A DNA stretch of 64,000 nucleotides, taken from the IMG/VR virus record IMGVR_UViG_3300020187_000010. One strand, given 5' to 3'. The notes under the pieces were generated by a model. That model was not told the origin of the DNA. It saw only the letters and a program-made list of their open reading frames with translations, and ran no database searches. This document shows positions 2,858-30,371 of this stretch, one piece after another. Made by a program: the position numbers and the translations under genes. Origin of the DNA: a virus. Position 1 is the stretch's first letter. Each line of letters starts with the position of its first letter.

Positions 2858-3553
2858 TTATTCGTCTGAACTAATTTCTTCGAGTAAATCTTCGCGAAGT
2901 TCAGCGGATAGTTGGGAAGTATCGAAAGTGAAAGATACTGTACATCTCCAACAGTCAGTCTTCGCGGCATGATAGAACAATCTTTCGGGTTCACCGTAAT
3001 GACCAAAGTATGCTGCCTTGCACTGCCACCCTGGCTTATCTTCCATCACCACAACTTCTTTTGATATAGGATCTACATATTCGAATTGACCTTCTCCAGT
3101 TTCCGACCACGTGAAGATCAAATTATACGCTGCTGCATTTGCATTATTGTGCCAAGAGATAAAACCACCGGGCGGATACCATGCGGTTAGTGCATTATTT
3201 TTCACACCCAACCAATTCATAAGTCCTTGATTCATGTGCGCGAGTTCTGCGGTTCTATCTTTTCTTACCGAGGGATGAACCCCGTTATTGAAAAATTCAT
3301 GTCCCTTGCGACCAACACTCATTTCATAACCATACATCTGATCGGGAAATCCTTCGTGTCGGGTTCCTTGATCTAATATTTCTTCCAGATGACCTTTACC
3401 CGCCCAGAAATGTCTATTCCGTGATTCGTGAGAACAACTCTTATGAAATGTTTCCTCGAAGTCAGGGATATCTCTGGTCAAGAAATCTCGATAGGCATTT
3501 AATTTCACCAATAAGTCTTGGTTCATCACCGGAATGTCTTGCATATAACTCAT
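2858..3553 (-). CDS. Putative 2OG-Fe(II) oxygenase/cupin-like protein
   Basis: YPPGGFISWHNN...LIFTWS...FYHAA pattern resembling a double-stranded beta-helix with His ligands. Confidence 0.5.
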   Translation of the reverse strand: MSYMQDIPVMNQDLLVKLNAYRDFLTRDIPDFEETFHKSCSHESRNRHFWAGKGHLEEILDQGTRHEGFPDQMYGYEMSVGRKGHEFFNNGVHPSVRKDRTAELAHMNQGLMNWLGVKNNALTAWYPPGGFISWHNNANAAAYNLIFTWSETGEGQFEYVDPISKEVVVMEDKPGWQCKAAYFGHYGEPERLFYHAAKTDCWRCTVSFTFDTSQLSAELREDLLEEISSDE

Positions 3554-4284
3554 ATAATATATCCGTCCTTATCTAATCCACAGGAATAATGTCTGACAAT
3601 AACTTCACCTTCTGGTCTAGTCCTTGCCCAGTTGAATGCGTTATAATAGTTCCAACGCAAATCATCTTCCAAGATACCATACTTCAGGTCTTTGTATTTA
3701 GGTTCTTTCTCGGTCAACCACCAAAGACTGAACTGATCCCATGACCGAAGACTTTCTATATATCCTTCAGGCCACCAGTCACGATCCATTTGTCTGCGTG
3801 TGAGATCCCACCAATCATCCATGAACTCACGTACAATAGGTTTGGTCATATCGTAAAGTGCAACACCACCACATAGAGTGAACTTGGATGGGCCATCGGG
3901 AGTATCAAAACTTCTTTCGGCATAGACATATTCACGATCATCGGTCAATTCAGAGAATAAGATGTCTTCGTCACGTCTTTCCAATTCATCAAAACAAATG
4001 CGGATATCTTCGTGTTCCACTTCCATATCAACATCGAGGTACATGGTTAGGTCATATGGAGAACGAGCCATACCATCTAGTTTTGCACGGTAGTGGGATG
4101 AACACCATTCAACATTATCAAATAAATCTCGGTGTATTTCTTCGAACATCCACTCTTCGCAGAATAGTGTAATCTTCGCATCTTCGTAATAATCCAGAAT
4201 AGATTCTGCTAGATTGATCGCATACCGATAGAAGTTAATCTTATTCGATGCAACCAACACATAACCTTTAGACTTCTCAGACAT
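3550..4284 (-). CDS. GT-A fold glycosyltransferase
   Basis: SPYDLTMYLDVD (DxD), CGGVALY, WDQFSLW motifs; start taken at MSEKSKG. Confidence 0.75.
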   Translation of the reverse strand: MSEKSKGYVLVASNKINFYRYAINLAESILDYYEDAKITLFCEEWMFEEIHRDLFDNVEWCSSHYRAKLDGMARSPYDLTMYLDVDMEVEHEDIRICFDELERRDEDILFSELTDDREYVYAERSFDTPDGPSKFTLCGGVALYDMTKPIVREFMDDWWDLTRRQMDRDWWPEGYIESLRSWDQFSLWWLTEKEPKYKDLKYGILEDDLRWNYYNAFNWARTRPEGEVIVRHYSCGLDKDGYII

Positions 4285-4732
4285 CTTCCTCAACTCCAAG
4301 TTCTTCTTTTAAAAGCAACATAGCAAAAAGATTCGCTTCTACCTTGGACTTTGCTCGTCTAAGTTTAGACTTGAGTTTTCTGTTCTTAGAGTTTTTAATT
4401 TCTTCGGTTTCGAAGATTTCTAATTTATAGTTAAAGAGTTCTTCTAACTTACGTGCACGTGCGTGTTCCACATCACGTTGTTTATCTTCTTCTTTTTCGG
4501 CAGCTTTACGAATCTTACGGTCTTCGGTATTTCTATCTACAGACTCTTCACCTAAAGCATCAATGACTTCATTGAACAATTCATTTTCACTACCATCCTT
4601 ATTCTTGCGACTCAACATCATTACTTGTCGGGTCTCGCGATCCAGATCATCTTTCATTTCTAGGATACAGTTGAGTTTTTCTTTCTCCTCTGTTTCCCAG
4701 AACGCATTATCCATCCATCTTTTATAACTCAT
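4277..4732 (-). CDS. Hypothetical protein (charged, helical; possible chaperone)
   Basis: 151-aa ORF with GGAG SD; overlaps the downstream GT gene. Confidence 0.7.
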   Translation of the reverse strand: MSYKRWMDNAFWETEEKEKLNCILEMKDDLDRETRQVMMLSRKNKDGSENELFNEVIDALGEESVDRNTEDRKIRKAAEKEEDKQRDVEHARARKLEELFNYKLEIFETEEIKNSKNRKLKSKLRRAKSKVEANLFAMLLLKEELGVEEDV

Positions 4733-4760: not shown

Positions 4761-4789
4761 ATTATACTATATATCAAAAGATTAAGCAA
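4761..4789 (-). promoter_or_regulatory. Sigma70-type promoter TTGCTT-N17-TATAAT for the 4732/4284/3553 genes
   Basis: 17-bp spacer and perfect -10; overlaps the stop of the 1786-aa gene. Confidence 0.55.
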
Positions 4790-7700
4790 CCCTTACGTAC
4801 AAGGTATATGTCTCAATCACTCCTGTTCCGGAATCAACAGTTGTTCCGGTATAATTACCAGTAAAGTTTCTGGCATAATTTCCTGCGAATGTTCTACTAT
4901 AGTTACCCGCAAAACCTCTACTATAATTACCAGTAAAGTCACCTAAGTATGACGAGGTTCTAGTTCTAGTAGAATCTATGGTATATGCTGAATTTCGACT
5001 TCTACTAAAAGTGGATACTCTAGTTCGTGCAGAGGTTCTGACCGAAGTTCTTGAGTAGTCCCCAACAAAAGTTCTACTATAGTTACCAGTAAAGTCTCCG
5101 ACATAATTAGAAGATCGGGTTCTTGCATATTCACCAACAAAGGTTCTATTGTAGTTACCCACAAAGTTACCCGCAAAGTCTGAAGTAGAATCCCGAGTAT
5201 ATTCTCCTACAAAGTTTCTGTTGTAGTTACCAACAAAATCTCCTACGAAAGTCCGGCCATAATTACCACCAAATATTCTTGAGAAGTTACCAGTGTATTC
5301 TCCTACAAAATCAGTCGCACGAGTTCTTGCATATTCTCCCACAAAGTTTCTGTTGTAGTTGCCGACATAGTTACCCGCAAAACCTCTTGCATAGTTACCA
5401 ACAAATCCTCTATTGTAGTTACCGACAAAATTACCCGCGAATGTACTGATACTATTTCTTGTGTATTCCCCAACAAAAGTTCTATTGAAATTGCCGGTAT
5501 AATTACCCCCAAATCCACGATTGTAATTACCTGCGAATGCACGAGCATAGTCACCAATAAAGTTTCCAATAGAGTCGGTTACCCGAGTCCTAGAATAGTT
5601 ACCTGCGAATGCACGAGCATAGTTACCTTCAAATGCACGAGTCGAAGTGCGGAGAGATATACGGGTATAGTTACCAACGAATCCTCTATTATAGTTACCG
5701 ACAAAATTACCTGCGAATGTACTGATACTATTTCTGGTATAGTTTCCGGTAAAGGTTCTACCATAGTCACCAACAAAGTTTCCAATAGAGTCGGTTATAC
5801 GAGTTCTTGCGTAGGCAGATACACGATTACGAATATAAGACGATGCACGAGTACGTATATATGTGGATATTCTACTACGGGTCGATATACGAGTATATTC
5901 ACCAGTATAGTTGCCGGTGTAGTTGCCTGCAAATCCACGAGTATAATCACCAGTGAAATTACCTGCGAACGTGCGAGTATAGTTCGATGACAATGTGAGC
6001 ATATCAGTGATACTAGGACTTGCTGCGTTTGTAGTATCATCTACACGAGGTTCCCAGAACTGTTGATTGGTCGCGGTATCTGTTGAGTAATACAAGTATG
6101 TTCTGTGGTATGCAGTAGTGTTACCACTCCAGACAAAATCATTCTGAGCGGATACAACTTTCTCACCCGCCATATTATAGATACCAGAGTCAGCATGAGC
6201 CGCACCGGTACCAGAACCTTCGGGGAAAACGTGACCGACTACCAAAAACCATTCGTTTTGAGATTCGGTACCATACCACCAACCTCTCGCTTGGAAGTAC
6301 GGATTACTGTTAGATGCACCATTACTTCTGTTCAATACTGTTCCGCCAACACCAAGATAGAATGAACCATTACCAATAACTTTACGTCTTACCCATGTAG
6401 AGAATCTGTATAGTTTGGTTTTATCAACTGAGAAAGCTGAAGTATTCCAACCACCATCTGCATTAGATGTCGCATCTTGATTTGACACATCCCAAACGAT
6501 ATCAGTACCCTTCGGAGAAGTGTCGGAAATACGTGAGTTACCGTCCCCGTTCTGATTATAGTTAGTTGCAGAACCAGTACCAACTGTCCAAGCAGGAAAG
6601 TTCTGCCACAACAAGTTAGATTGATCTGAGTAACGTGTACCAGTTGTACCTACGAACTGAACGATACTATCACGAGTTGATGTACGAGTATACGTAGAAC
6701 TTCTGTTTTGAATACGAGTTCTTGTGTAATTACTAGGTCTACTGCGTGTAGATATTCTAATGTATGCGGATGATCTACTACGTGCCGATATACGAGTATA
6801 TGTGGAGAGACGGCCGCGGGTCGATGGGTTTATTGAAGTGCGAATATATGAAGAATTTCTACTACGGGTCGATATTCTAGTATACGCAGAGATGCGAGTT
6901 CGCGAATAGTCACCTATAAAGTTTCGCGAATAGTTTCCTATGTAGTCTCCGGTATAATATCCAATGCGAGTGTAGTCGCCTATGTAGTCACCTGCATAAG
7001 ATCCAATGCGAGTATAGTCACCCGTAAAGTCACCTGCGTAATATCCAATGCGAGTAAAGTATAATGGAGTTATTCTATTACGAATAGATATGCGAGTATA
7101 GTCTCCGGTATAGTACAATGTGCGAGTATAGTTACCGATGTAATATAGAGTTCGAGTATAGTCGCCTGTATAATACAATGTACGAGTATAGTTACCGGTG
7201 TAATATAGAGTTCGAGTATAGTCGCCCGTAAAGTTACCTATATAATATCCGGTTCGGATATAGGTATCGATTCGATTCGAAGTACGGGTACTTGTTCTAA
7301 TGTACGTACCGGTTCCAATTCTAGTACGTATAGATGTTCTGATATAATATCCGGTCGCAGTTCTGGTTCTCGAAGAATATCTCAGGTAATTCGCAACCCC
7401 CAAATAATCACCGGTATAATACACTGTCTGTTTAACTATTCGAGTATAGTCACCTACATAGTTAACTATTCTATTATAGTTACCTACAAAATTACCAACA
7501 TAATACAATGTACGAGTGTAGTTACCTGTGAAATTACCAATGTAATACAATGTACGAGTGTAGTTACCTGTGAAATCACCTGCATAATATGATGTACGTT
7601 GGTAGTATAATGTAGCAATTCTGTCTCTTATTGATATACGTTGGTAGTTACCAGTCGCAATTCTGGTACGAATATATGTTCCGGTGGCAGTTCTGGTACG

Positions 7701-10142
7701 AATATATGTTCCGGTGGCAGTTCTGGTTCTGATATAGTCACCAGTTGCAATTCTTATACGAGTATAATTTCCGGTATAGTTACCAGTATAGGTCGAATCA
7801 CGAGTATATGTTAAAATTCGACTACTAGTTCGAAGACTCGTTCGGATATAGTTGAGTGTGCGAACTGAAGTTCGAAGACTCGTTCGGATATAGTTGAGTG
7901 TGCGAACTGAAATACGTGTGCTGTTTCTGGTATATGCAGAAGGACGAGTACGGCCATATTCTCCTACGAACCCTCTATTATAATTGCCAGTATAATTGCC
8001 AGCAAACGCACGAGTATAATTTCCGGTATAGTTACCAATGTAGTTTCCGGCAAATGTTCTTTGGTAGTTACCAGTATAGTCGCCAGCAAACGCACGGTTA
8101 TAATTTCCGGTATAGTTACCAGCAAATGATCTACCATAGTCGCCGACATAATTACCGACAAATGTTCTTGCGTAATTACCACCAAAGTTACCGACATATC
8201 CTTGGAATCTGTCGCGAGTATATGTTACCAATGAATTCCGTGAAGAAATACGAGTGTAGTTGGAACCTCTTGTTCTTGCACTAATACGTGTTGATATACG
8301 AGAATAGTTGCCGGTATAGTCACCCGCAAACCCACGTGAATAGTTACCTATAAATGTTCTATTATAATTACCAACAAATGTTCTATTATAGTTACCAACA
8401 TAGTCACCGGTAAAAGTTACAAGTCTATCCCGAACATAATTGGAAACTCGGCCACGAGTGTAGTTACCAATAAAGTCACCGGTAAAGTCTGTTACTCGAT
8501 CACGTGTATATGCGGATATTCTCGTGCGTGTATAATTGCCTGTATAATTACCTGCATAATTAGAAACACGAATTCTTGCGTATGCAGAGATACGAGTACG
8601 GCCGTAGTTACCAACATAGTTACCGGTAAAAGTCGTTAGTTGATCTCTGGTGTATGTGGAGCTTCTAGTTCGGGTATATGCGGAGATACGAGTACGGGTA
8701 CTTATTCTAGAGTATGATGATACTCTGTTACGTGCATAGTTGCCAACAAAGTCGCCAATAAAGGATGTTACTCGATCACGAATATATGCACTGGTACGTG
8801 TTCGCGAATATGTTGATATGCGATTACGTGAGTATGTTCCTGCGTATGCGGATACTCTAGTACGGGAATAATCCCCAACAAAATTACCAATATAGTTTCC
8901 CGAAAACACGGTTGTGTATGTAGATGTTCTGTTACGAGTATATGTACTCAACCTGTTGCGAATACTATTTCTACTGTATGCAGATACTCTTGTTCTAGAA
9001 TAATTGCCTACAAAGTTACCTGTGAAAGTATTGATACTATCTCTGGTATATGCAGAAGATCTATTGCGAACATACTCGCCCACAAAGATTCTAGAGAAAG
9101 TATCAGTACTGTTTCTAGTGAAAGTTGAAGCACGGTTTCTTGTGTACTCACCTACGTAATTACCGACATACTCACCCACATAATCTCTGATATATTGTCC
9201 CGAAAAGTTTCGAGTGTAGTTGCCAATATAATTTCCACCAAAATCTCGGGTGAACGTATTTGTGCTATTACGAGTGTATAGTGAAGTTCTTGTTCTTGCG
9301 TATGCGGATGAACGATCACGAGTATAAGAAGATGCACGAGTACGAACATATGCAAGTTCTGAAGTTGTTCTTTTAGTATTGGTCGCAGTACCTTTTGCGG
9401 CCCAAGTTCCTGCACTTACCGGAGTTCCCTGAGTCGCAGATCTTAATTGGTAAGAACCAATATTACCCACCTTTCCCCTAAGAGTTTTACAGTGTTGTCC
9501 ATAAGTGTAAGTAATCTGGTTAACAGATTGTTCTTGTAATCCACCAAAACTGGCGGCAGAACCTGACCCAATCATACCAATCGGAGACGTGGCTGTCGGT
9601 GCAGTCATTGCATCACGTTGGTAGATATTGTATACTGTAGAAGTTCCGTTACCTAATGTATCTGTGTATACAGCGGGGATAAATGTACCATAGTCCGCAC
9701 TAGGTGCAGAAGAACCGAGGTAAAAGGTGCCTGGATAATCAGATATTGCAATACGTGCATTCAGACGAGTACATAAGGTATCCATATCTACATCAGTAAA
9801 TTCATGAATACCTACATCACCCGAAGTGTTCCAACCAACCGGTCTGTTATAAAAACTACCAGTATAGTTCGCATCATTAGATAGTTGTCTTAGATTAGTC
9901 GTAGTTGTGCCGGAAGTGATAGATGATGCGGGATGGGTACCATCAGGTTCATTGTAGAAAGTATCAACGAAAGAACCAATGATAGTACCACTAGAGAGAT
10001 GCAAGTCTCCCGCAGAAGAACCCGAAGAATTCTTTAGTTGAATACCTGCAAGATAGGCGAGATAGTTCTCTTCCGTAGGAGTCATCTCCTTCAGATCACC
10101 ATTCGTACCTTCTAACTTTAGTGGGATATCAGATGCGGCCAC
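4782..10142 (-). CDS. Giant self-complementary tetrad-repeat fibre protein (1786 aa) with inserted carbohydrate-binding-like domain
   Basis: N-terminal ~264 aa and C-terminal ETYTLYVRVA shared with the paralog at 10191-13277; residues 265-1767 are [YF]xG[ND]/[YF]xRx/RxSx tetrads; globular insert aa 1166-1386; late promoter upstream; sits in the tail module. Confidence 0.85.
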   Translation of the reverse strand: MAASDIPLKLEGTNGDLKEMTPTEENYLAYLAGIQLKNSSGSSAGDLHLSSGTIIGSFVDTFYNEPDGTHPASSITSGTTTTNLRQLSNDANYTGSFYNRPVGWNTSGDVGIHEFTDVDMDTLCTRLNARIAISDYPGTFYLGSSAPSADYGTFIPAVYTDTLGNGTSTVYNIYQRDAMTAPTATSPIGMIGSGSAASFGGLQEQSVNQITYTYGQHCKTLRGKVGNIGSYQLRSATQGTPVSAGTWAAKGTATNTKRTTSELAYVRTRASSYTRDRSSAYARTRTSLYTRNSTNTFTRDFGGNYIGNYTRNFSGQYIRDYVGEYVGNYVGEYTRNRASTFTRNSTDTFSRIFVGEYVRNRSSAYTRDSINTFTGNFVGNYSRTRVSAYSRNSIRNRLSTYTRNRTSTYTTVFSGNYIGNFVGDYSRTRVSAYAGTYSRNRISTYSRTRTSAYIRDRVTSFIGDFVGNYARNRVSSYSRISTRTRISAYTRTRSSTYTRDQLTTFTGNYVGNYGRTRISAYARIRVSNYAGNYTGNYTRTRISAYTRDRVTDFTGDFIGNYTRGRVSNYVRDRLVTFTGDYVGNYNRTFVGNYNRTFIGNYSRGFAGDYTGNYSRISTRISARTRGSNYTRISSRNSLVTYTRDRFQGYVGNFGGNYARTFVGNYVGDYGRSFAGNYTGNYNRAFAGDYTGNYQRTFAGNYIGNYTGNYTRAFAGNYTGNYNRGFVGEYGRTRPSAYTRNSTRISVRTLNYIRTSLRTSVRTLNYIRTSLRTSSRILTYTRDSTYTGNYTGNYTRIRIATGDYIRTRTATGTYIRTRTATGTYIRTRIATGNYQRISIRDRIATLYYQRTSYYAGDFTGNYTRTLYYIGNFTGNYTRTLYYVGNFVGNYNRIVNYVGDYTRIVKQTVYYTGDYLGVANYLRYSSRTRTATGYYIRTSIRTRIGTGTYIRTSTRTSNRIDTYIRTGYYIGNFTGDYTRTLYYTGNYTRTLYYTGDYTRTLYYIGNYTRTLYYTGDYTRISIRNRITPLYFTRIGYYAGDFTGDYTRIGSYAGDYIGDYTRIGYYTGDYIGNYSRNFIGDYSRTRISAYTRISTRSRNSSYIRTSINPSTRGRLSTYTRISARSRSSAYIRISTRSRPSNYTRTRIQNRSSTYTRTSTRDSIVQFVGTTGTRYSDQSNLLWQNFPAWTVGTGSATNYNQNGDGNSRISDTSPKGTDIVWDVSNQDATSNADGGWNTSAFSVDKTKLYRFSTWVRRKVIGNGSFYLGVGGTVLNRSNGASNSNPYFQARGWWYGTESQNEWFLVVGHVFPEGSGTGAAHADSGIYNMAGEKVVSAQNDFVWSGNTTAYHRTYLYYSTDTATNQQFWEPRVDDTTNAASPSITDMLTLSSNYTRTFAGNFTGDYTRGFAGNYTGNYTGEYTRISTRSRISTYIRTRASSYIRNRVSAYARTRITDSIGNFVGDYGRTFTGNYTRNSISTFAGNFVGNYNRGFVGNYTRISLRTSTRAFEGNYARAFAGNYSRTRVTDSIGNFIGDYARAFAGNYNRGFGGNYTGNFNRTFVGEYTRNSISTFAGNFVGNYNRGFVGNYARGFAGNYVGNYNRNFVGEYARTRATDFVGEYTGNFSRIFGGNYGRTFVGDFVGNYNRNFVGEYTRDSTSDFAGNFVGNYNRTFVGEYARTRSSNYVGDFTGNYSRTFVGDYSRTSVRTSARTRVSTFSRSRNSAYTIDSTRTRTSSYLGDFTGNYSRGFAGNYSRTFAGNYARNFTGNYTGTTVDSGTGVIETYTLYVRVA
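4842..9350 (-). repeat. 12-nt (4-aa) period repeat tract with nested 30/42/60-nt tandem duplications, interrupted at 5985-6647
   Basis: Direct reading, e.g. 42-nt tandem at ~7826-7910 and 30-nt tandem at ~7655-7730. Confidence 0.9.
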
Positions 10143-10190: not shown

Positions 10191-13100
10191 TTATGCGGTT
10201 CTTACATACAGAGTATATGTTTCAACTGAGAATGTAGTATCCCTAATAGTCTGACCCACGTAGTCTCCTACAAAGTCTCTGGAATAATTACCGGCAAAGT
10301 TTCTACTATAATTACCGGTATAGTTGCCGCCAAAATCTCTAGTACTTGTTCGAGTAGACTCTCTAGTATATGAAGATCCTCTAGTTCTGGTGTATGTAGA
10401 CCCACGATTTCTTATAAAGTTTGTATTACTTACACGGGTATAGTTGGAGTTTCTATTTCTGGTAAACTCACCAGTATAATCACCGACATAATCCGCAGCA
10501 TAAACTCCAACGTATGTAGATGCTCTTAAAGTTATGTATGACGAAACCCGAGATCTACTGAAAGAATCGAACCTTGTTCTGGCTGATATTCGTGTGAAAT
10601 CTCCGGTATAGTTGCCGCCAAAATCTCTTGTGTAATTACCTGCAAAGTTTCTTGAGTAAGACGATACCCGAGTTCTGATATATGTCGAATAACGATCATT
10701 TAAACTAACTCTGGTAAATAGACCTGCATAATTACCGGTATAGTTACCGGCAAAGTCTCTCGTATATTCACCGGTATAGTTACCAGTATAGAGTGAAACC
10801 CTAGTCCGTATATAATTACTGTTTCTTTCTCGGGTAAAGTCTCTTGCATACTGTCCCGAGAAAGTAGAAGACCTAGTCAGTATATAATTACTGTTTCTTT
10901 CTCGGGTAAAGTCTCTTGAATATTGTCCCGAGAAAGTAGAAGATCTAGATCTTATGTAACTAGAATCTCTATTTCTGGTAAAGTCCCTCGCATATTCTCC
11001 CGCAAAAGTAGAAGATCTAACTCTTATGTAATTCGAATTTCTAGTTCTTTCATAGTTTCTTGAGTATTCGCCAACAAACAATCTATTATAACTTGATACT
11101 CTGGCTCTTTCGAAGTTTCTTGAGTATTCCCCAGCAAACTCTCTAGAATAAGTAGATACCCGAGTCCTAGTAAATTCGCGAGTGAATCCCTGCAAATATG
11201 AACTGACTCTTGTGAAATCACCAATGTATGAAGGAACCGTCCTAGTAGCTATAAAGTCACCGGTATACGTAGCGGGGCCAGCAAAGTAAAGACCACCACC
11301 CGATTTGTCGTATCTGACAGAATTCACAAATCCCGCAAAAGTAGATGTACTGTTACGAGTATATTCTCCTCCCGGCAATCCCAAATAACCAGCACCCACA
11401 AAGTCTCTTGTGTAATCACCAGTATAGTATAAAGTACCTTTTAGGTATTCTGCACGAGCTCGTGTATAATTACTTACTCTAACACCACCATATGTGGATG
11501 TCGAAGTGCGTGTAAAGTTTAATGTTCGAGTGAAGTTGCCAATATATGTTGAGAAACGAGTTCTGCTGAAGTTTCTATTATATGTAGAAATTCTATCTCT
11601 TGTATAGTCACGTGCATATTCACCAACAAAGGCTCTATTATATGCTGAACTTCTATCTCTAGTGAAGTCACGTGCATAGTTACCAATATATGTGGCAGTA
11701 TAATTGCCAGTGTAAGTTGATGACCTAATTCTAGTGAAGTCACGTGAATATTGTCCAGAGAAAAATCTGGAGTAATTGCCAGTGTAAGTTGATGACCTAA
11801 TTCTAGTGAAGTTACGTGCATATTGTCCAGAGAAAAGTCTGGTATAATCGCCAGTGTAATTAGAATTTCTAATTCTAGTGTAGTCACGTGCATATTGTCC
11901 AGAGAAAAATCTGGTGTAATCGCCAGTGTAATTAGAATTTCTACTTACTATTCTTGTTCTGGTATAGGTAGATGTTCTAGCACGTGTCGAGATTCGTGTA
12001 TATTCACCTACATAGTTACCAGCATAGTTGCCAAGAAACATTCTAGTATAGTTGCCGGTAAAGTCTCTGGAATAATTAGATGTACGAGTTCTACCATAAG
12101 CCGATTCCCGAGTCCGTGTGAAGTCTCTGGTATAATTGCCTGTAAATTCACCGGCATATGAACTGATACGTGTCGCTATGAAATCTCTAAAAAAGGTACG
12201 TGAAAAGTTGCGACTGAAGTTACCTGTGTAATTTCCAATATAGTTGCCTGTAAAGTCTCTAGAATAGTCTCCGACAAAAGTTCTACCATAGTCGCCAGTA
12301 AAATCACCGGTATAATTGCCCGTAAATTCTCTGGTATAGTTTCCTATAAATTCTCTGGTGTAATTGCCTGTGAATTCACCGGCATATGAAGTTGTCCCTG
12401 TGCGAGTGTAATCATCAGCGTAAGCCGAAGGTCTAGTTCTCGTGTATAAAGATGCTCGTGTGCGAGTATAGTTCTGTTCACTGACAACACGAATGGTGTT
12501 TGCAGCACTACCTACATTCTTCCAAGTACCACCGACAGGTATACCCTGCGAAGAAGTTCTAAGTTCATATGATCCGACCGCACCATCAATTGCACGTCTG
12601 GTTTTCGCACGTTGACCAATAGTCACTTGAACTTGACGATCTGTTAATGCTTGTAATCCTTCATAAGTACCAGAGGCGCCACTACTTCTCTTCAGTCCCG
12701 CGAGAGTGACCGAAGTTGGAGCAGTCATTGCAGTTCTACGCCATATACTATAGTCATTTACAGTATATGGGTTCCCCGAAGAGTCAGCACGTTGATCATG
12801 CAAAACACTAGGGACTAGAATGTCATAGTCTGCACTAGGTCTGGTCGAAGACAACTTGAGAGAGCCTGGATAGTCAGATAGTGCGATACGACCATTGATA
12901 TCATCGATGAAAGTGTTCAGATCATTATCCGACATTTCATATACATTACTTTCATAATGTCCGACTGGTTTTCTCCAATCACTATCATTCTCTAGTGCGG
13001 TACCATTGATCTGATATAAATTTGTTGTGGTGGTAATAACCGATTGGGCATTATATGGATGAGTTCCAACGGGTTCTGGATAATAGGTATCCGTCAGAGA

Positions 13101-13277
13101 TCCAAGAGACCTATTTCCACTTGCACTGAGCGTAAGAAGCCCTACATCGCTACTGTCCGCAATTGCGTTCTGTAGTCCTGCGAGGTAGGCAACATAATTT
13201 TTCTCGGTTGCATTTATCTGTTGGAGATTACCATTAATGTCTTTTAATTTTAACGGTAATGTCTTATTATCTGACAT
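10191..13277 (-). CDS. Self-complementary tetrad-repeat fibre protein, paralog (1028 aa)
   Basis: LPLKLKDINGNLQQINATEKNYVAYLAG vs IPLKLEGTNGDLKEMTPTEENYLAYLAG; repeats aa 270-1009; C-terminal ETYTLYVRTA. Confidence 0.85.
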   Translation of the reverse strand: MSDNKTLPLKLKDINGNLQQINATEKNYVAYLAGLQNAIADSSDVGLLTLSASGNRSLGSLTDTYYPEPVGTHPYNAQSVITTTTNLYQINGTALENDSDWRKPVGHYESNVYEMSDNDLNTFIDDINGRIALSDYPGSLKLSSTRPSADYDILVPSVLHDQRADSSGNPYTVNDYSIWRRTAMTAPTSVTLAGLKRSSGASGTYEGLQALTDRQVQVTIGQRAKTRRAIDGAVGSYELRTSSQGIPVGGTWKNVGSAANTIRVVSEQNYTRTRASLYTRTRPSAYADDYTRTGTTSYAGEFTGNYTREFIGNYTREFTGNYTGDFTGDYGRTFVGDYSRDFTGNYIGNYTGNFSRNFSRTFFRDFIATRISSYAGEFTGNYTRDFTRTRESAYGRTRTSNYSRDFTGNYTRMFLGNYAGNYVGEYTRISTRARTSTYTRTRIVSRNSNYTGDYTRFFSGQYARDYTRIRNSNYTGDYTRLFSGQYARNFTRIRSSTYTGNYSRFFSGQYSRDFTRIRSSTYTGNYTATYIGNYARDFTRDRSSAYNRAFVGEYARDYTRDRISTYNRNFSRTRFSTYIGNFTRTLNFTRTSTSTYGGVRVSNYTRARAEYLKGTLYYTGDYTRDFVGAGYLGLPGGEYTRNSTSTFAGFVNSVRYDKSGGGLYFAGPATYTGDFIATRTVPSYIGDFTRVSSYLQGFTREFTRTRVSTYSREFAGEYSRNFERARVSSYNRLFVGEYSRNYERTRNSNYIRVRSSTFAGEYARDFTRNRDSSYIRSRSSTFSGQYSRDFTRERNSNYILTRSSTFSGQYARDFTRERNSNYIRTRVSLYTGNYTGEYTRDFAGNYTGNYAGLFTRVSLNDRYSTYIRTRVSSYSRNFAGNYTRDFGGNYTGDFTRISARTRFDSFSRSRVSSYITLRASTYVGVYAADYVGDYTGEFTRNRNSNYTRVSNTNFIRNRGSTYTRTRGSSYTRESTRTSTRDFGGNYTGNYSRNFAGNYSRDFVGDYVGQTIRDTTFSVETYTLYVRTA
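10251..12470 (-). repeat. 4-aa period repeat tract with 72-nt (24-aa) tandem duplications in both halves
   Basis: 72-nt repeats at ~11700-11940 and ~10800-11040. Confidence 0.9.
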
Positions 13278-13291
13278 TCTCTTTCCTACTA

Positions 13292-16200
13292 TTAGTTTAG
13301 AAGAGTACCGTTTTCGTCATAGATTAAGACAGTTCTAGATGCCAGTTCATTTAACGCTTTAACAATACTATCATTATTTATACCTTCAAAGAAGTTGCCT
13401 GGCGCAGAACTGTCAAGTGTATTCAACTGACCAACTCGATTACTCAAGTTTAGAATGTCTGTGTCATTACTTGTGACTCTACCCTTTACGACTTCAATTT
13501 CACCAACCGCACTATCCAGTTGGGTGTGGATCTCATTGATAGCCGGAACAATAAACTTACTTGTTGTATCCAGTGTGGAGATACCTGTTCCTGACATGTT
13601 CGCAGTTGTACCACCGGACTGTATAATGTCCAGATGCGCACGGGTTATAAGTTTCTCGGACTCTATCTCGGTAACTGCACTATCTAGTTGCAAATGAAGT
13701 TCATTGATACCACCCGCAACATCTTGTGCGGTAGTGTCTAGATCTTCGTCAGTGTGGAATGCACGACCATGTATCTCTACCTTAGTTGCATCCATTTCGA
13801 TTGCAAGACCAGTACCAGAATAAATGTCCAGATGATTGCCAGAGTTTCGGAATTCACCAAACTGAACGGTTGCATCTTTAAGGAATACATTACCACCGTC
13901 TGCATCAAGTGTAATATCACCGGAGACATCATACGTCAGATTTCCTACAACATCAACTTCTTGGTTTGTACCAAGGTTATAGGTGAACTTAGTTACACCG
14001 CCATCCTTGAAGAAGATGTCCGCGCCATTCGCGTCAAGTGTAATATCACCTTCTGCATCAAGAAGAATATTTGTTCCTGCATTGATGGTTGCAGTTGTTC
14101 CTGCGGTAGTAGATGTAGATCCACCGGCAGTCTGTACAATACTACCTGTAGTAGTCAGACCATACGAGTCCGCACTATCATTTAATGCACCGATGATAGC
14201 ATTTACTAATGTGCCACCAACAGTAGTAGTTTTGTTTACAGTAATATTCTCTTTTACCGAACCACCAATAGTTAGACTATAACCATTTGTAGTAGTCAAA
14301 GATGCAGAATCACTTACCGATATATTATAATCTCCGGTAACAGTGATGTTGTTTGTTGCACCTAATTGATGACGGATGCGTGTGGATGCACCGTCTTTGA
14401 AGTAAATGTCGTTTCCATCTGCGTCAAGTGTAATATCACCAGAAGCATCGATCAAGTAATTACCATCTGCTGTATGGGTTTGTCCCAATGATGTTGTGGT
14501 CAATGTACCCAAAGTAGTATGAGACATTGCACCACTAGAAGTAACTGAGTAAGTACCACCAGCACTATCAGATTGGTTACCTGATACAGTTTGTGTAAGA
14601 TTACCGTTAACATCTAAAGTGTTTGACGCACCCATTCCATATGAGAAACGAGAAGTACCTGCATCTTTGAAGTCGATGTCTCCACCGTCTGCATCCAGTA
14701 CTATATCACCTGCCACATCGACAGTTAAGTTGCCGGTGGGTACGTCAATCTCTTGATTCGCACCCATAACGAAGTCGAATCTGATCGCCCCATTATCTTT
14801 AAGTGTAACATTACCGCCATTTGCATCAAGGTTAATATCACCCTCAACATCTGCGGTTAGGTTACCACCAGCGGTAAGACCCATGTTTGATTCAGTAACA
14901 AGATTGAACGCACCACCCGCAGTATTCGTCATCGGGCCACGAGTGTCGATATTAATACCGTTAGTCGAAGAGATGTCACGAGTACCAGAAGCACTGTCAG
15001 AGTGATCTCCTGCCACTGTAAGGGTGTTGTTACCCGAAGTAGTAGTAGTGAGTGTACCTGTAACATCTAAAGTATTTGCTGAACCCAGTCCGTAAGCAAA
15101 ACGAGTCGTTCCAGCTTGTTTGAGGTCAATGTCACCACCACCGGCATCCAATACAATATCATTGACAACATCAAAGATCAACGAACCGACAACATCAATC
15201 TCTTGATTCGTACCGAAATTATATGTTACCTTATTGGCACCACCATCTGTTAGATATAGTTGTCCACCATCAGCATCGAGAGTAATATCTCCAGATGCAT
15301 CAACAGTGAAGTTTCCCGCCACATTATGGGTTTGTCCCAATGATGTTGTGGTGAGAGTACCAAGAGTGGTATGAGACATCGCACCAGTTGAGGTGATGTC
15401 ACGAGTACCATTTGCACTGTCTGAGAAGTTGCCTGAGACGGTTTGAGTTAGATTACCTGTAATGTCTAAGGTATTAGATGCACCAAGTCCGTATTCAAAT
15501 CTAGATACTCCACCGTCTTTTAGGTCGATGTTTGCGCCATCTGCGTCTAATATAATATTACCAGACACATCAAGAGTATAATTGCCAGTTACGGCTTCGG
15601 TGTTAGTGGTACCCATCGTATATGCAATACGAGTAACACCACCATCTTTGTATGTAATGTTTGCCCCATCTGCATCGAAGATTATATCACCCGAGATGTC
15701 AAATGTCAAGTTTCCGGTACGAGAAACTGTACCGTCAGTAGCAAAGTCGTACTCTGTGACACCAGCATCTTTGAATGTGACATTACCACCATCAGCATCA
15801 AGGATAATATCTCCGGACGCATCGACAGTGTATGTGGTCGTTTCTATTCTAGTTGCACCGGTAGAGGTAAGAGTTGTATCACCAGATACATCGATATCTA
15901 AGTTAGAAGAAATATCAAGATCAAGGATACCAGTCACACCAACTGTGTTAGTGGTACCTAATGTGAATGCAATACGACTGACCGAATCATCAAGGAAGTT
16001 GATGTTAGATCCACCGGCATCTAAATTAATATCACCTACCGCATCAACGTTGAAGTTTGCACCGACATTGAATTGTACATCAGTACCACTTGCTTGATTA
16101 GTACTGATTAGTAAACGAGTTTGAGTTTCCCCTTGGAGGGCATTTCCCGTAGGATAAATGATTTCACCGGAAGATGCGTCAAACACTCTTTCGATTTCGT

Positions 16201-16333
16201 TGATGGCCATGACCACATCACTATCACCGTGAGTGAGAAGATCCACCGGATCGCCAACATTATAAGAGACAGTGTTGAGGTTGTCTCGCATTATCTTGAA
16301 CGAGTCACTTAGTTTCGTAAATGGTCTTGACAT
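13292..16333 (-). CDS. Acidic repeat-rich tail fibre/virion protein (1013 aa)
   Basis: 11 copies of D[AV]SGDI.LDADG..[VI].[FL]KD.G; several (V/A).AINE[IL] fibre motifs at both ends. Confidence 0.75.
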   Translation of the reverse strand: MSRPFTKLSDSFKIMRDNLNTVSYNVGDPVDLLTHGDSDVVMAINEIERVFDASSGEIIYPTGNALQGETQTRLLISTNQASGTDVQFNVGANFNVDAVGDINLDAGGSNINFLDDSVSRIAFTLGTTNTVGVTGILDLDISSNLDIDVSGDTTLTSTGATRIETTTYTVDASGDIILDADGGNVTFKDAGVTEYDFATDGTVSRTGNLTFDISGDIIFDADGANITYKDGGVTRIAYTMGTTNTEAVTGNYTLDVSGNIILDADGANIDLKDGGVSRFEYGLGASNTLDITGNLTQTVSGNFSDSANGTRDITSTGAMSHTTLGTLTTTSLGQTHNVAGNFTVDASGDITLDADGGQLYLTDGGANKVTYNFGTNQEIDVVGSLIFDVVNDIVLDAGGGDIDLKQAGTTRFAYGLGSANTLDVTGTLTTTTSGNNTLTVAGDHSDSASGTRDISSTNGINIDTRGPMTNTAGGAFNLVTESNMGLTAGGNLTADVEGDINLDANGGNVTLKDNGAIRFDFVMGANQEIDVPTGNLTVDVAGDIVLDADGGDIDFKDAGTSRFSYGMGASNTLDVNGNLTQTVSGNQSDSAGGTYSVTSSGAMSHTTLGTLTTTSLGQTHTADGNYLIDASGDITLDADGNDIYFKDGASTRIRHQLGATNNITVTGDYNISVSDSASLTTTNGYSLTIGGSVKENITVNKTTTVGGTLVNAIIGALNDSADSYGLTTTGSIVQTAGGSTSTTAGTTATINAGTNILLDAEGDITLDANGADIFFKDGGVTKFTYNLGTNQEVDVVGNLTYDVSGDITLDADGGNVFLKDATVQFGEFRNSGNHLDIYSGTGLAIEMDATKVEIHGRAFHTDEDLDTTAQDVAGGINELHLQLDSAVTEIESEKLITRAHLDIIQSGGTTANMSGTGISTLDTTSKFIVPAINEIHTQLDSAVGEIEVVKGRVTSNDTDILNLSNRVGQLNTLDSSAPGNFFEGINNDSIVKALNELASRTVLIYDENGTLLN

Positions 16334-28325: not shown

Positions 28326-28938
28326 CATCTTCGAGAACTTCTACCAACTCATTCTTTGCAAAAAGTATTCCGTTGTATCTTGTTTCCAATTCATTTTTAT
28401 AGTATAACTTCCAAGTAATTCCATCTACCTTTGGCATTACGACTGTTACTTGTGCATTGAGTTTTCCTGTTGGATCCCACTTATCATATTCTAGAATAAG
28501 TTTATCGTATCCAACATAGTCCTTGATATACTCAGCAAGATCGAATGTTCTTTCATAATCGATCTCACCCTTCTCATCAACTACTTTGTAACTTACCATT
28601 TGACCGTCTTGTTTTAGAAGATTTTCTCCTGCAACTGTTTCTAGAGGGCCACCACGATAAACCCCTTCCGATACAATAAGACGCACATCTTTGAACATGT
28701 CAATGTTTCCATTGATTCTACGGAACAACTCTGCGTGTAGATAGAGATTGTATGCAAGTTGTTGTCTATCATTAGGACTGTTTTGATATTTGTCTATGGT
28801 CGATAAACTACATGGGTTTCCTTTACTGCCAAGAAACTTAGAGACTGATACTCCAGGCGCAAGTTTAGTGAACGAAGTAATATCCTTCGCATCAACTAAA
28901 GCTGGATTGTATTTCTGATCTGGTACAATTGTTATCAT
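28321..28938 (-). CDS. Hypothetical baseplate-region protein
   Basis: 205-aa ORF coupled (ATGA) to the gp5 C-terminal gene. Confidence 0.7.
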   Translation of the reverse strand: MITIVPDQKYNPALVDAKDITSFTKLAPGVSVSKFLGSKGNPCSLSTIDKYQNSPNDRQQLAYNLYLHAELFRRINGNIDMFKDVRLIVSEGVYRGGPLETVAGENLLKQDGQMVSYKVVDEKGEIDYERTFDLAEYIKDYVGYDKLILEYDKWDPTGKLNAQVTVVMPKVDGITWKLYYKNELETRYNGILFAKNELVEVLEDV

Positions 28939-30371
28939 TTGAATCTTTTACCTCTATTCTTCACGGAGTTACCAAGTGGAGTATAACCAAATCTTGGAGA
29001 TGTTTCTTTCTTGGCAATACGTCCTACCTTCGGAGGTAAAGGATTTTCCCAGTCGGATGCAATCATACCATTCTTTATCAGTGCATCGGGGAATGAGATA
29101 CCTTTCTCGTTCACGATTGTTCTGTTCGCTTCGTCTCGCATGGTAGATCGAATTTCATTTATAGTGGGTTCTTTTTCAAACAGTCCCGCATAGTCATCAC
29201 GTAACAGTATATGATTGCGTATTGCATCTTTACTATCAATTGATATTGCACGTATAGACAAATGTCCATCTGACAGAAGACCTGCAACTGCATCTGTCTT
29301 AGGTATTGGTTTCAGTGGAGATAAAGATTCCATATTCTTAGGCACATCAGGCGCCCCTCCGGAGGGTTGTCCACCTTTCTCCTTGGATGCAAGTTGCGCA
29401 GTCTTCGCATTCTCTGCTTTATGCGCATACTTGGATTTGATTGCTTCGAGTGCCTGTCCATGGAAAGAACCATAGAATGATGCACCCGAAGTAAATGGTA
29501 CCGCACCTTGTGGCCCCATGTAAACAGGGCCAGTGAACTCGACTTGTTCCCCTCCAATCGCACCTTTCATACCAAGTACTGATATTTCAGTTGCAGAGAT
29601 ATTACCCTGCAATGCAGTCATCACAAATTCTTCTTCGGCAGATACATGGAAACGATTACCGGTGAACATTTCAATCTCAGCACCTACGTTATTTTTCCAA
29701 TGACCTTTGATGGTACCATAACAGTTACCCAAAACAATATCTGATTTGTGTTCGACTGTCTTGTTTACCGCAGTACCTTTAGTTGTATAATTGGTGTTCA
29801 GTCCTACCGTTGTGGTGTTGTTCTTACGTATCTCGGTGTTGGTATTGCCATCAACGTTGACATTGTAATCACCCCCAACATTGACATTATAGTCACCTGT
29901 CACTTCAAGGTTGAGGTTTCCATTATACACCAACTTACCGTTACCTTCAACAATGACAGTTTGGTCACCACCAGTAACCTCGACCTTGTTATTGACCGCA
30001 GAGATGACCACAGACCCGTCTGCGCGGACTTCTACACCCGCACCCTTACGGTGTTTGATAAGAATACGTTCACCGCCAGGCGTGTCATCATACGAGATGA
30101 TATGACCCGATGCGGTTTCTTTTACTTGGTTGAACGGGAAACGAGAAGGTTCTTGGTCTTCGAGATCCAAGTCTGTTCCTTCGGTACCACCACCAAGATA
30201 AAGATTCTCTACTTTGAGACCACGTGCAGATCTATTTAATGAAGACCCATAATGATATTCCCTTTTGGGAAATTCTCCAGTAGGATCTTGGAAACCATCA
30301 ATTGGAACACCTTCGGTATTTTCAATTGCAGGATTGTCACCTATCGTTTTTTTATTTGTTGTAGTTGTCAT
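28935..30371 (-). CDS. gp5: Baseplate hub/needle protein, gp5 C-terminal part (beta-helix)
   Basis: FPFNQVKETASGHIISYDDTPGGERI..H..G..E motif and V.G(D/N)Y...V.G beta-helix repeats. Confidence 0.8.
   Translation of the reverse strand: MTTTTNKKTIGDNPAIENTEGVPIDGFQDPTGEFPKREYHYGSSLNRSARGLKVENLYLGGGTEGTDLDLEDQEPSRFPFNQVKETASGHIISYDDTPGGERILIKHRKGAGVEVRADGSVVISAVNNKVEVTGGDQTVIVEGNGKLVYNGNLNLEVTGDYNVNVGGDYNVNVDGNTNTEIRKNNTTTVGLNTNYTTKGTAVNKTVEHKSDIVLGNCYGTIKGHWKNNVGAEIEMFTGNRFHVSAEEEFVMTALQGNISATEISVLGMKGAIGGEQVEFTGPVYMGPQGAVPFTSGASFYGSFHGQALEAIKSKYAHKAENAKTAQLASKEKGGQPSGGAPDVPKNMESLSPLKPIPKTDAVAGLLSDGHLSIRAISIDSKDAIRNHILLRDDYAGLFEKEPTINEIRSTMRDEANRTIVNEKGISFPDALIKNGMIASDWENPLPPKVGRIAKKETSPRFGYTPLGNSVKNRGKRFK

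Follow-up and report, generated by a model that had tools for sequence, protein, structure and literature searches.

A tetrapeptide pairing code between the repeat arms of a probable hairpin fibre protein in an uncultured aquatic T4-like phage

The stretch analysed here, called the window throughout, is the whole 64,000-nucleotide (nt) piece of viral DNA in the IMG/VR record IMGVR_UViG_3300020187_000010, whose source is an uncultured aquatic T4-like myovirus. Two adjacent paralogous genes lie on its minus strand, and the subject of this work is the smaller of them, encoding the 1028-amino-acid (aa) protein P0001. Two long arms of four-residue repeats (tetrads) in P0001 are complementary to each other in antiparallel order, a pattern that probably reflects a chain folded back on itself. 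The parts of the P0001 gene and its larger paralog are listed below by window position, with model confidence given as the AlphaFold2 predicted local distance difference test (pLDDT).

10191-13277, minus strand: the P0001 gene (small paralog, 1028 aa), from the open reading frame (ORF) list and its translation, stop codon included.
12471-13277, minus strand: N-terminal domain (N-domain), aa 1-269, the putative globular base, with a pLDDT of ~90 and common to 316 clusters at 50% identity.
11523-12470, minus strand: arm A, aa 270-585, 79 outward tetrads in a single phase, with Y, F or R at position 1 and R, G or S at position 3.
11655-11942, minus strand: four tandem 24-aa (72-nt) units within arm A, aa 446-541, direct repeat family D6.
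11211-11522, minus strand: irregular tip, aa 586-689, rich in Gly and aromatic residues, in which the tetrad phase is lost.
10251-11210, minus strand: arm B, aa 690-1009, 80 returning tetrads, class-complementary to arm A in reverse order.
10755-11042, minus strand: four tandem 24-aa units within arm B, aa 746-841, at the mirror position of the arm A units.
10194-10250, minus strand: C-terminal strand, aa 1010-1028, with the family motif ETYTLYVRTA at its end and a pLDDT of 84-96, predicted to close the base.
4782-10142, minus strand: the large paralog, 1786 aa, of the same architecture and directly downstream of P0001.

An original prediction, made from the letters of the DNA alone, had the two arms pair in reverse order and without gaps from the anchors Y270 and Q1009, and its coordinates proved correct when the codon positions were checked (codon Y270 begins at nt 12470 and codon Q1009 ends at nt 10251). 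Tetrads hold a single phase across aa 270-585 and aa 690-1009. Units were classed by their positions 1 and 3 ([YF]xRx, [YF]xGx or RxSx), unit 270+4k was paired with unit 1006-4k, and a strict rule was applied in which RxSx opposes [YF]xGx and [YF]xRx opposes [YF]xRx. The rule is obeyed by 49 of the 80 pairs, compared with 22.4 +/- 3.7 when arm B is shuffled (maximum 39; 0/100,000 shuffles reach 49). The anchored register is the sole peak among the 162 registers scored (81 antiparallel and 81 parallel; z about 7), with a runner-up of 31/78, and the gapless reverse pairing is thus borne out by the reverse-alignment test. SxRx units also oppose [YF]xGx units, and the score becomes 53/79 when they are counted in. 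The exceptions comprise 15 violations and 16 unclassified tetrads among the 80 pairs; the five violations named in the original prediction are all real, but its description of them as a handful was wrong. Regular pairing stops at about aa 578/698, and the windowed heuristic used for extent halts at local patches of violations, a halt that does not mean loss of the register. Complementarity established with this code applies to the subfamily that uses it (the RS/G/R-code subfamily).

A mirror pattern of this kind might be a historical by-product, whether of an ancient inverted duplication or of low-complexity composition, in arms that never touch, and repeats built from three classes do produce a high background (30/74 with the arms displaced by six tetrads). 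Direct repeats are numerous in the gene but DNA inverted repeats are absent, and a palindrome at the DNA level is thereby ruled out; nor, under the genetic code, does the reverse complement of FxGx codons encode RxSx. The mirror pattern belongs to the protein and not to the DNA. The uniqueness of the register peak counts against a by-product as well, as do recent compensatory insertions and deletions (indels) in several lineages, described below, which require ongoing joint selection on the two arms. This explanation is close to refuted, and we give it very little credence.

The signal has a consistent chemistry at the level of single residues. Arm-arm mutual information, calculated from five proteins that differ in unit order (298 unit pairs in total), is concentrated on tetrad positions 1 and 3 (A3xB1 0.73, A1xB3 0.65, A1xB1 0.58 and A3xB3 0.46 bits; z 20-37), with positions 2 and 4 weak. 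When residues are set opposite each other at i+j=1278, 122 of the 158 same-face pairs are favourable (aromatic:Arg 65, Arg:Gly 27, aromatic:Ser 30), Arg:Arg occurs only 4 times and aromatic:aromatic not at all, and a shift by one unit produces 20-21 Arg:Arg pairs. Phe accompanies Gly in the units that oppose Arg-x-Ser, and Tyr-x-Arg opposes Tyr-x-Arg. Lys is absent from the arms, Arg makes up 16-17% of them and Tyr plus Phe ~21%, with net charges of +25 (arm A) and +27 (arm B), and the 3 His among the 1028 residues of P0001 are all in the N-domain, with none in the arms. The code is probably read out by cross-strand Arg-aromatic and large-small packing, and not by hydrogen-bonded bases.

Compensatory change between the arms is what argues most strongly for a physical hairpin. 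The relative represented at L002-L005, whose N-domain is 98% identical, is 39 residues longer than P0001; in L002, 20 aa are added between tetrads 526 and 530 and another 20 aa between tetrads 746 and 750 (i.e., between mutually pairing units), the two inserts, of classes GRRSR and RGRRS, complement each other, and there is an additional one-residue change in the tip. The large paralog and its L005 counterpart differ by 14 residues in each arm, with complementary unit types, and in L031 versus L015 both arms differ by 36 residues at their base, where R/S/T-type units oppose [YF]xGx units. Between L017 and L021 (88% identical), the net difference is 24 residues in each arm. Unmatched differences fall in the tip or consist of whole globular domains (e.g., the 118-aa insert of L032 and the 221-aa insert of the large paralog). 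Because a 60-nt arm A insertion of the L002 type occurs beside the window form in public sequencing runs (at window 11647-11687, in contigs of two DNA and two RNA-library runs), length variants coexist in natural populations.

The same indels bear on the possibility that the arms are packed in a compact repetitive fold, such as a solenoid with rungs contributed by both arms, which would make the protein far shorter than an extended stalk. Structure prediction gave no conformation for the repeats, and the tandem 24-aa super-repeats present in both arms could be read as solenoid turns. The first three of these units share 83-94% nt identity in arm A and 72-82% in arm B, and the two sets pair with each other, the class order S-G-R-G-R-R standing against its reverse complement S-R-S-G-R-R. 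A fixed-period solenoid needs a common turn length, which the matched indels of 20, 14, 36 and 24 residues do not share, whereas a ladder accepts any length; a compact fold accordingly seems to us quite improbable.

Covariation between the two ends of the protein was also found without recourse to the pairing rule. Mutual information with average product correction was calculated for columns 252-293 versus 986-1026 in 78 family members of <50% mutual identity, placed by two terminal anchors only. The signal peaks on antidiagonals 1274-1278, with 266:1012 as the top pair; the mean of the best antidiagonal is 0.088, compared with 0.021 +/- 0.004 in a row-shuffle null and 0.020 for the best parallel diagonal, and the covariation extends to about 70-90 residues from the base. 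A pooled mutual information on tetrad words across 78 proteins was dropped, sampling bias being dominant in it.

The family to which P0001 belongs is large. A phmmer search with aa 1-269 against 1.84 billion representatives retrieved 316 clusters (50% identity) at E<=1e-3, of which 128 were at E<=1e-30, and only one of 50,697 deposited phage records, Phage C48C1, holds a member. Nearly all of the 112 full-length representatives have an ETYTLYVR-type ending, with period-4 aromatic units at both ends; the C-terminal family motif is [YF]x[LM][YW]V[RK], located two to three residues before the end, which the ...ETYTLYVRTA of P0001 fits. P0001 matched no Pfam family (E<=0.1) and no PHROG family, the PDB sequence search with the N-domain profile gave no match, and in the ESM Atlas the N-domain matched unnamed viral clusters alone. 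Eight complete homologues from IMG/VR contigs, ranging from 944 to 2032 aa, were scored over all registers, and in each of them the anchored one ranks first. The pairing is replicated with different tetrad orders, both in small paralogs (944, 955 and 1067 aa) and in large ones (1615-2032 aa). No termini-anchored diagonal is seen in ORFs truncated by the end of a contig. More distant members have the same architecture with other pair types, P0015 pairing like with like (FxGT and FE[ST]x) and P0016 setting a basic arm against an acidic arm.

The large paralog in the window has a tetrad order different from that of P0001, as the original prediction had stated, and displays two antiparallel diagonals whose offset, exactly 221 residues, equals the length of the globular domain inserted in it. 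Crosswise scoring between the paralogs (arm A from one, arm B from the other), for which a poor result had been expected, came out at chance in the anchored register (18/79 and 24/79, with chance at 20.5 +/- 3.5 and 22.3 +/- 3.8), compared with 53/79 for each self pairing; over all registers, the cross-paralog maxima are 31 and 36 versus self maxima of 53 and 69. The 20 base-proximal tetrads are partly cross-compatible between the paralogs (8/20 and 12/20). The proposal that the distinct codes evolved against mis-pairing of the paralogs is compatible with these scores, which carry it no further since any unrelated stems score at chance.

AlphaFold2, run on full-length P0001 with a 16-sequence alignment, modelled the base alone, at the confidence listed above for the N-domain and for the last 20 residues. 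In this model, strands E252-275 and E1001-1026 face each other, and their extents fit i+j=1278 (252+1026). Foldseek searches against PDB and BFVD gave no match at E<=0.001, and VIA-align gave weak beta-prism-like matches alone (Z 5.3-6.3); because the beta-prism-like alignment runs to residue 1028, the C-terminal strand appears to belong to the N-domain.

Pairing within one chain and the oligomeric state of the protein are matters that we infer, and the antiparallel arms might instead pair between subunits, with arm A of one chain lying against arm B of its neighbour in an interwoven parallel oligomer. All of the sequence signals define which arm segments are neighbours, not to which chain they belong, and phage fibres are usually trimers. 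In the needle of T4 gp37, each chain twists round the neighbouring chain before turning back (PMC9603124). The confident AlphaFold2 model of the P0001 base as a monomer, with the C-terminal strand lying on its own residues 252-275, tips the balance slightly towards intra-chain pairing at the base, and we regard pairing between subunits as unlikely, although no observation argues directly against it.

Taken together, the complementarity, the matched indels and the covariation make it likely, in our judgement, that P0001 is a structural fibre-like protein whose chain folds back into a very long antiparallel beta hairpin stalk. The N-terminal 270-residue domain and the last ~20 residues would form one globular base, from which the intervening ~740 residues would make an excursion: the chain would run out for 79 tetrads, turn in the 104-residue irregular tip and return alongside itself as an antiparallel beta ladder, with residue i lying opposite a residue at about 1276-1278 minus i. 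On the code face, made up of tetrad positions 1 and 3, Arg would lie opposite an aromatic ring or Gly, Phe would lie opposite Ser, and Arg:Arg would be nearly avoided. Since the three tetrad classes follow one another aperiodically, the register would be unique in a repeat otherwise prone to slip, and length would evolve through indels kept only if the partner arm gained or lost a matching complementary piece. With a rise of ~3.3-3.4 Angstrom per residue, the stalk may be ~100 nm long if the ladder is extended, and the protein would presumably be carried on the virion.

Several observations weigh against this model of the hairpin stalk. About 1/5 of the tetrad pairs break the rule, and a non-canonical patch is present at aa 342-378 / 898-934. 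The exact residue register is not fixable, since the sum 1278 is best in the P0001 subfamily and 1276 in the broad family. The 3347-aa member of Phage C48C1 has no single anchored diagonal, and for arm-length equality, for which the original prediction had proposed a survey of homologues, a crude periodicity-based estimate across the broad family came out weak (r = 0.43). With regard to presence on the virion, contigs from RNA libraries cover most of the P0001 gene, with DNA carry-over a possible source. The stalk is without a supporting structural model, as AlphaFold2 gives a pLDDT of ~25 on all repeats and of 28 on a 297-residue tip construct (aa 490-786) taken alone. ESMFold2, given three copies of aa 490-786, scored 0.00. 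These predictions for the repeats and the tip bear on the hairpin model neither way. The interpretation offered in the original prediction is partly supported: its core, a family of hairpin proteins free to vary in length provided that both arms do so together, is well supported by sequence (the register in eight homologues, four independent matched indel pairs and the 78-member covariation), though not by a structure.

A wider generalization, towards which we lean only slightly, is that such proteins are sequence-addressed beta 'stem-loops', in which a three-letter tetrad code (YxRx with YxRx; FxGx with RxSx or SxRx) sets the register of a two-stranded ribbon several hundred residues in length, fibre length is tunable by matched insertions, domains inserted in one arm bulge out harmlessly, and co-expressed paralogs are orthogonal; the design would be evolvable and without described precedent. 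In the literature on cyanophage and T4-like fibre structures, tetrapeptide-repeat fibres and Arg-Tyr ladders, no description of the P0001 family was found, and no description of a fold-back design with a pairing code was found in family libraries, solved structures or papers.

The T4 gp37 needle is the closest known analogue of the proposed stalk. In this needle, the distal tip (D10-D11) of the long tail fibre, the chain goes from knob to tip, turns and returns, so that the N and C termini lie together and the receptor is bound at the turn (PMC9603124). The chain of P0001 likewise appears to go out and back with its termini together, as indicated by covariation and the AlphaFold2 model of the base and not by a structure of the stalk. 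The needle is an interwoven trimer ~20 nm long with ~215 residues in total, whereas the arms of P0001 have ~320 residues each and those of the large paralog ~640; the needle is ten times shorter. The needle reportedly binds iron ions at His-x-His motifs along its axis; P0001 has no HxH motif. Profile searches of Pfam, PHROG and PDB detected no sequence relation of P0001 to gp37, and in the literature searched neither a tetrad code nor evolution by compensatory indels is described for gp37. P0001 resembles the T4 gp5 C-terminal domain, gp12 and adenovirus fibre shafts in being, as predicted, beta-rich, repetitive and elongated, and in its similar gene block. In triple beta-helix and beta-spiral shafts, the chains are parallel, run in one direction and are built of repeats of constant length (8 or about 15 residues). 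P0001 differs from these shafts in its antiparallel signal, in its matched indels without a fixed unit and in the lack of a Gp5_trimer_C or DUF2345 match in Pfam. Collagen-like G-X-Y runs were also sought, and P0001, with its period of 4, has no run of four or more G-x-x triplets. RNA stem-loops, offered here as an analogy only, share with P0001 the antiparallel complementary arms, a small pairing alphabet, a central loop, bulged insertions and compensatory change; P0001 is unlike them in being a protein that pairs four-residue words of three classes (R:R, G:S, S:G).

If the hairpin model is true, P0001 represents a type of fibre that none of the known architectures (coiled coil, collagen, triple beta-helix, beta-spiral) covers, and a rare protein whose long-range contacts can be read from a single sequence and checked by compensatory indels, as is done for RNA stems. 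It would explain how one gene design yields appendages of 650 to >2000 residues, along with the swapping of distal domains, in uncultured marine and estuarine T4-like phages, and it would offer a natural rule set for designing long, register-specific beta ribbons. The repeats of P0001 also mark a blind spot of current structure predictors (pLDDT ~25).

The irregular Gly/aromatic sequence quoted in the original prediction (aa 628-668) is found at nt 11274-11395, within the ~11270-11460 given for it. The tip is 90% identical in the close relative L002 and absent from homologues with 70-83% identical N-domains, in which its place at the centre of symmetry, as defined from the conserved termini, is taken by unrelated small globular domains. 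Such swapping fits a distal binding module, and a receptor-binding function of the tip is plausible. Two 94% identical proteins, L032 (820 aa) and L033 (703 aa), differ by a 118-aa globular insert in the return arm (L032 aa 581-698) that is similar in sequence to the tip domains of L008s and P0157 (W/Y-rich, 'NG..VY', 'GG..Y.RG'), and from this similarity one small domain type can apparently occupy either the tip or a bulge on the side. The inserted domain of the large paralog occupies aa 1166-1386 (window 5985-6647) and has a sub-threshold language-model likeness (0.89, ESM Atlas) to a cluster in which 56% of members bear CBM_4_9, which is a lead only.

Within the arms, the non-canonical patch (window 11874-12254, the aa 342-468 region, and 10476-10586) contains FSRT/RAST, FFRD/YITL, FIAT/RVSS, RISS/FSRS and G:G pairs; it is retained in L002 and may act in the stalk as a hinge or as a binding site. 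In the C48C1 member (L001 11992-22035), self-complementary repeats of only 12 aa form long runs, which makes numerous registers equivalent. Tandem paralogs of the family are common in related phages (loci L015-L048: 650+764, 849+1183, 870+1135, 717+867, 820+773 and 703+769 aa), and the second paralog of the tandem frequently ends in ...YTLYQRTA.

The P0001 gene sits in a tail module, behind gp6-, gp8- and gp5-like baseplate genes: upstream of it, the same strand carries wedge genes (gp6-like, gp8-like and others) together with genes for a DUF4815 protein of 1960 aa and a gp5-like hub protein of 1013 aa. Signals of the gp5-type beta-helix (DUF2345, Gp5_trimer_C) are present in two separate minus-strand genes (13292-16333 and 28935-30371), and the 1013-aa gene with such a signal adjoins the hairpin genes immediately upstream. 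The gp6 homologue is 41% identical to that of Phage C48C1 and ~32% identical to those of Pelagibacter, Methylophilales and Synechococcus myoviruses, and because of these identities the source phage is not labelled a cyanophage. Near-identical DNA was found in marine and estuary metagenome runs from several studies.

Directly downstream of both hairpin genes lie three small minus-strand ORFs (151, 249 and 231 aa; window 2858-4732) that had no match in Pfam, PHROGs or PDB and are candidate assembly or attachment factors. Their order is kept beside family members in ~30 loci, with identities down to 34-49%, and they are often conserved better than the fibre genes themselves (e.g., in L008, orf249 is 85% identical versus 60% for the fibre N-domain).

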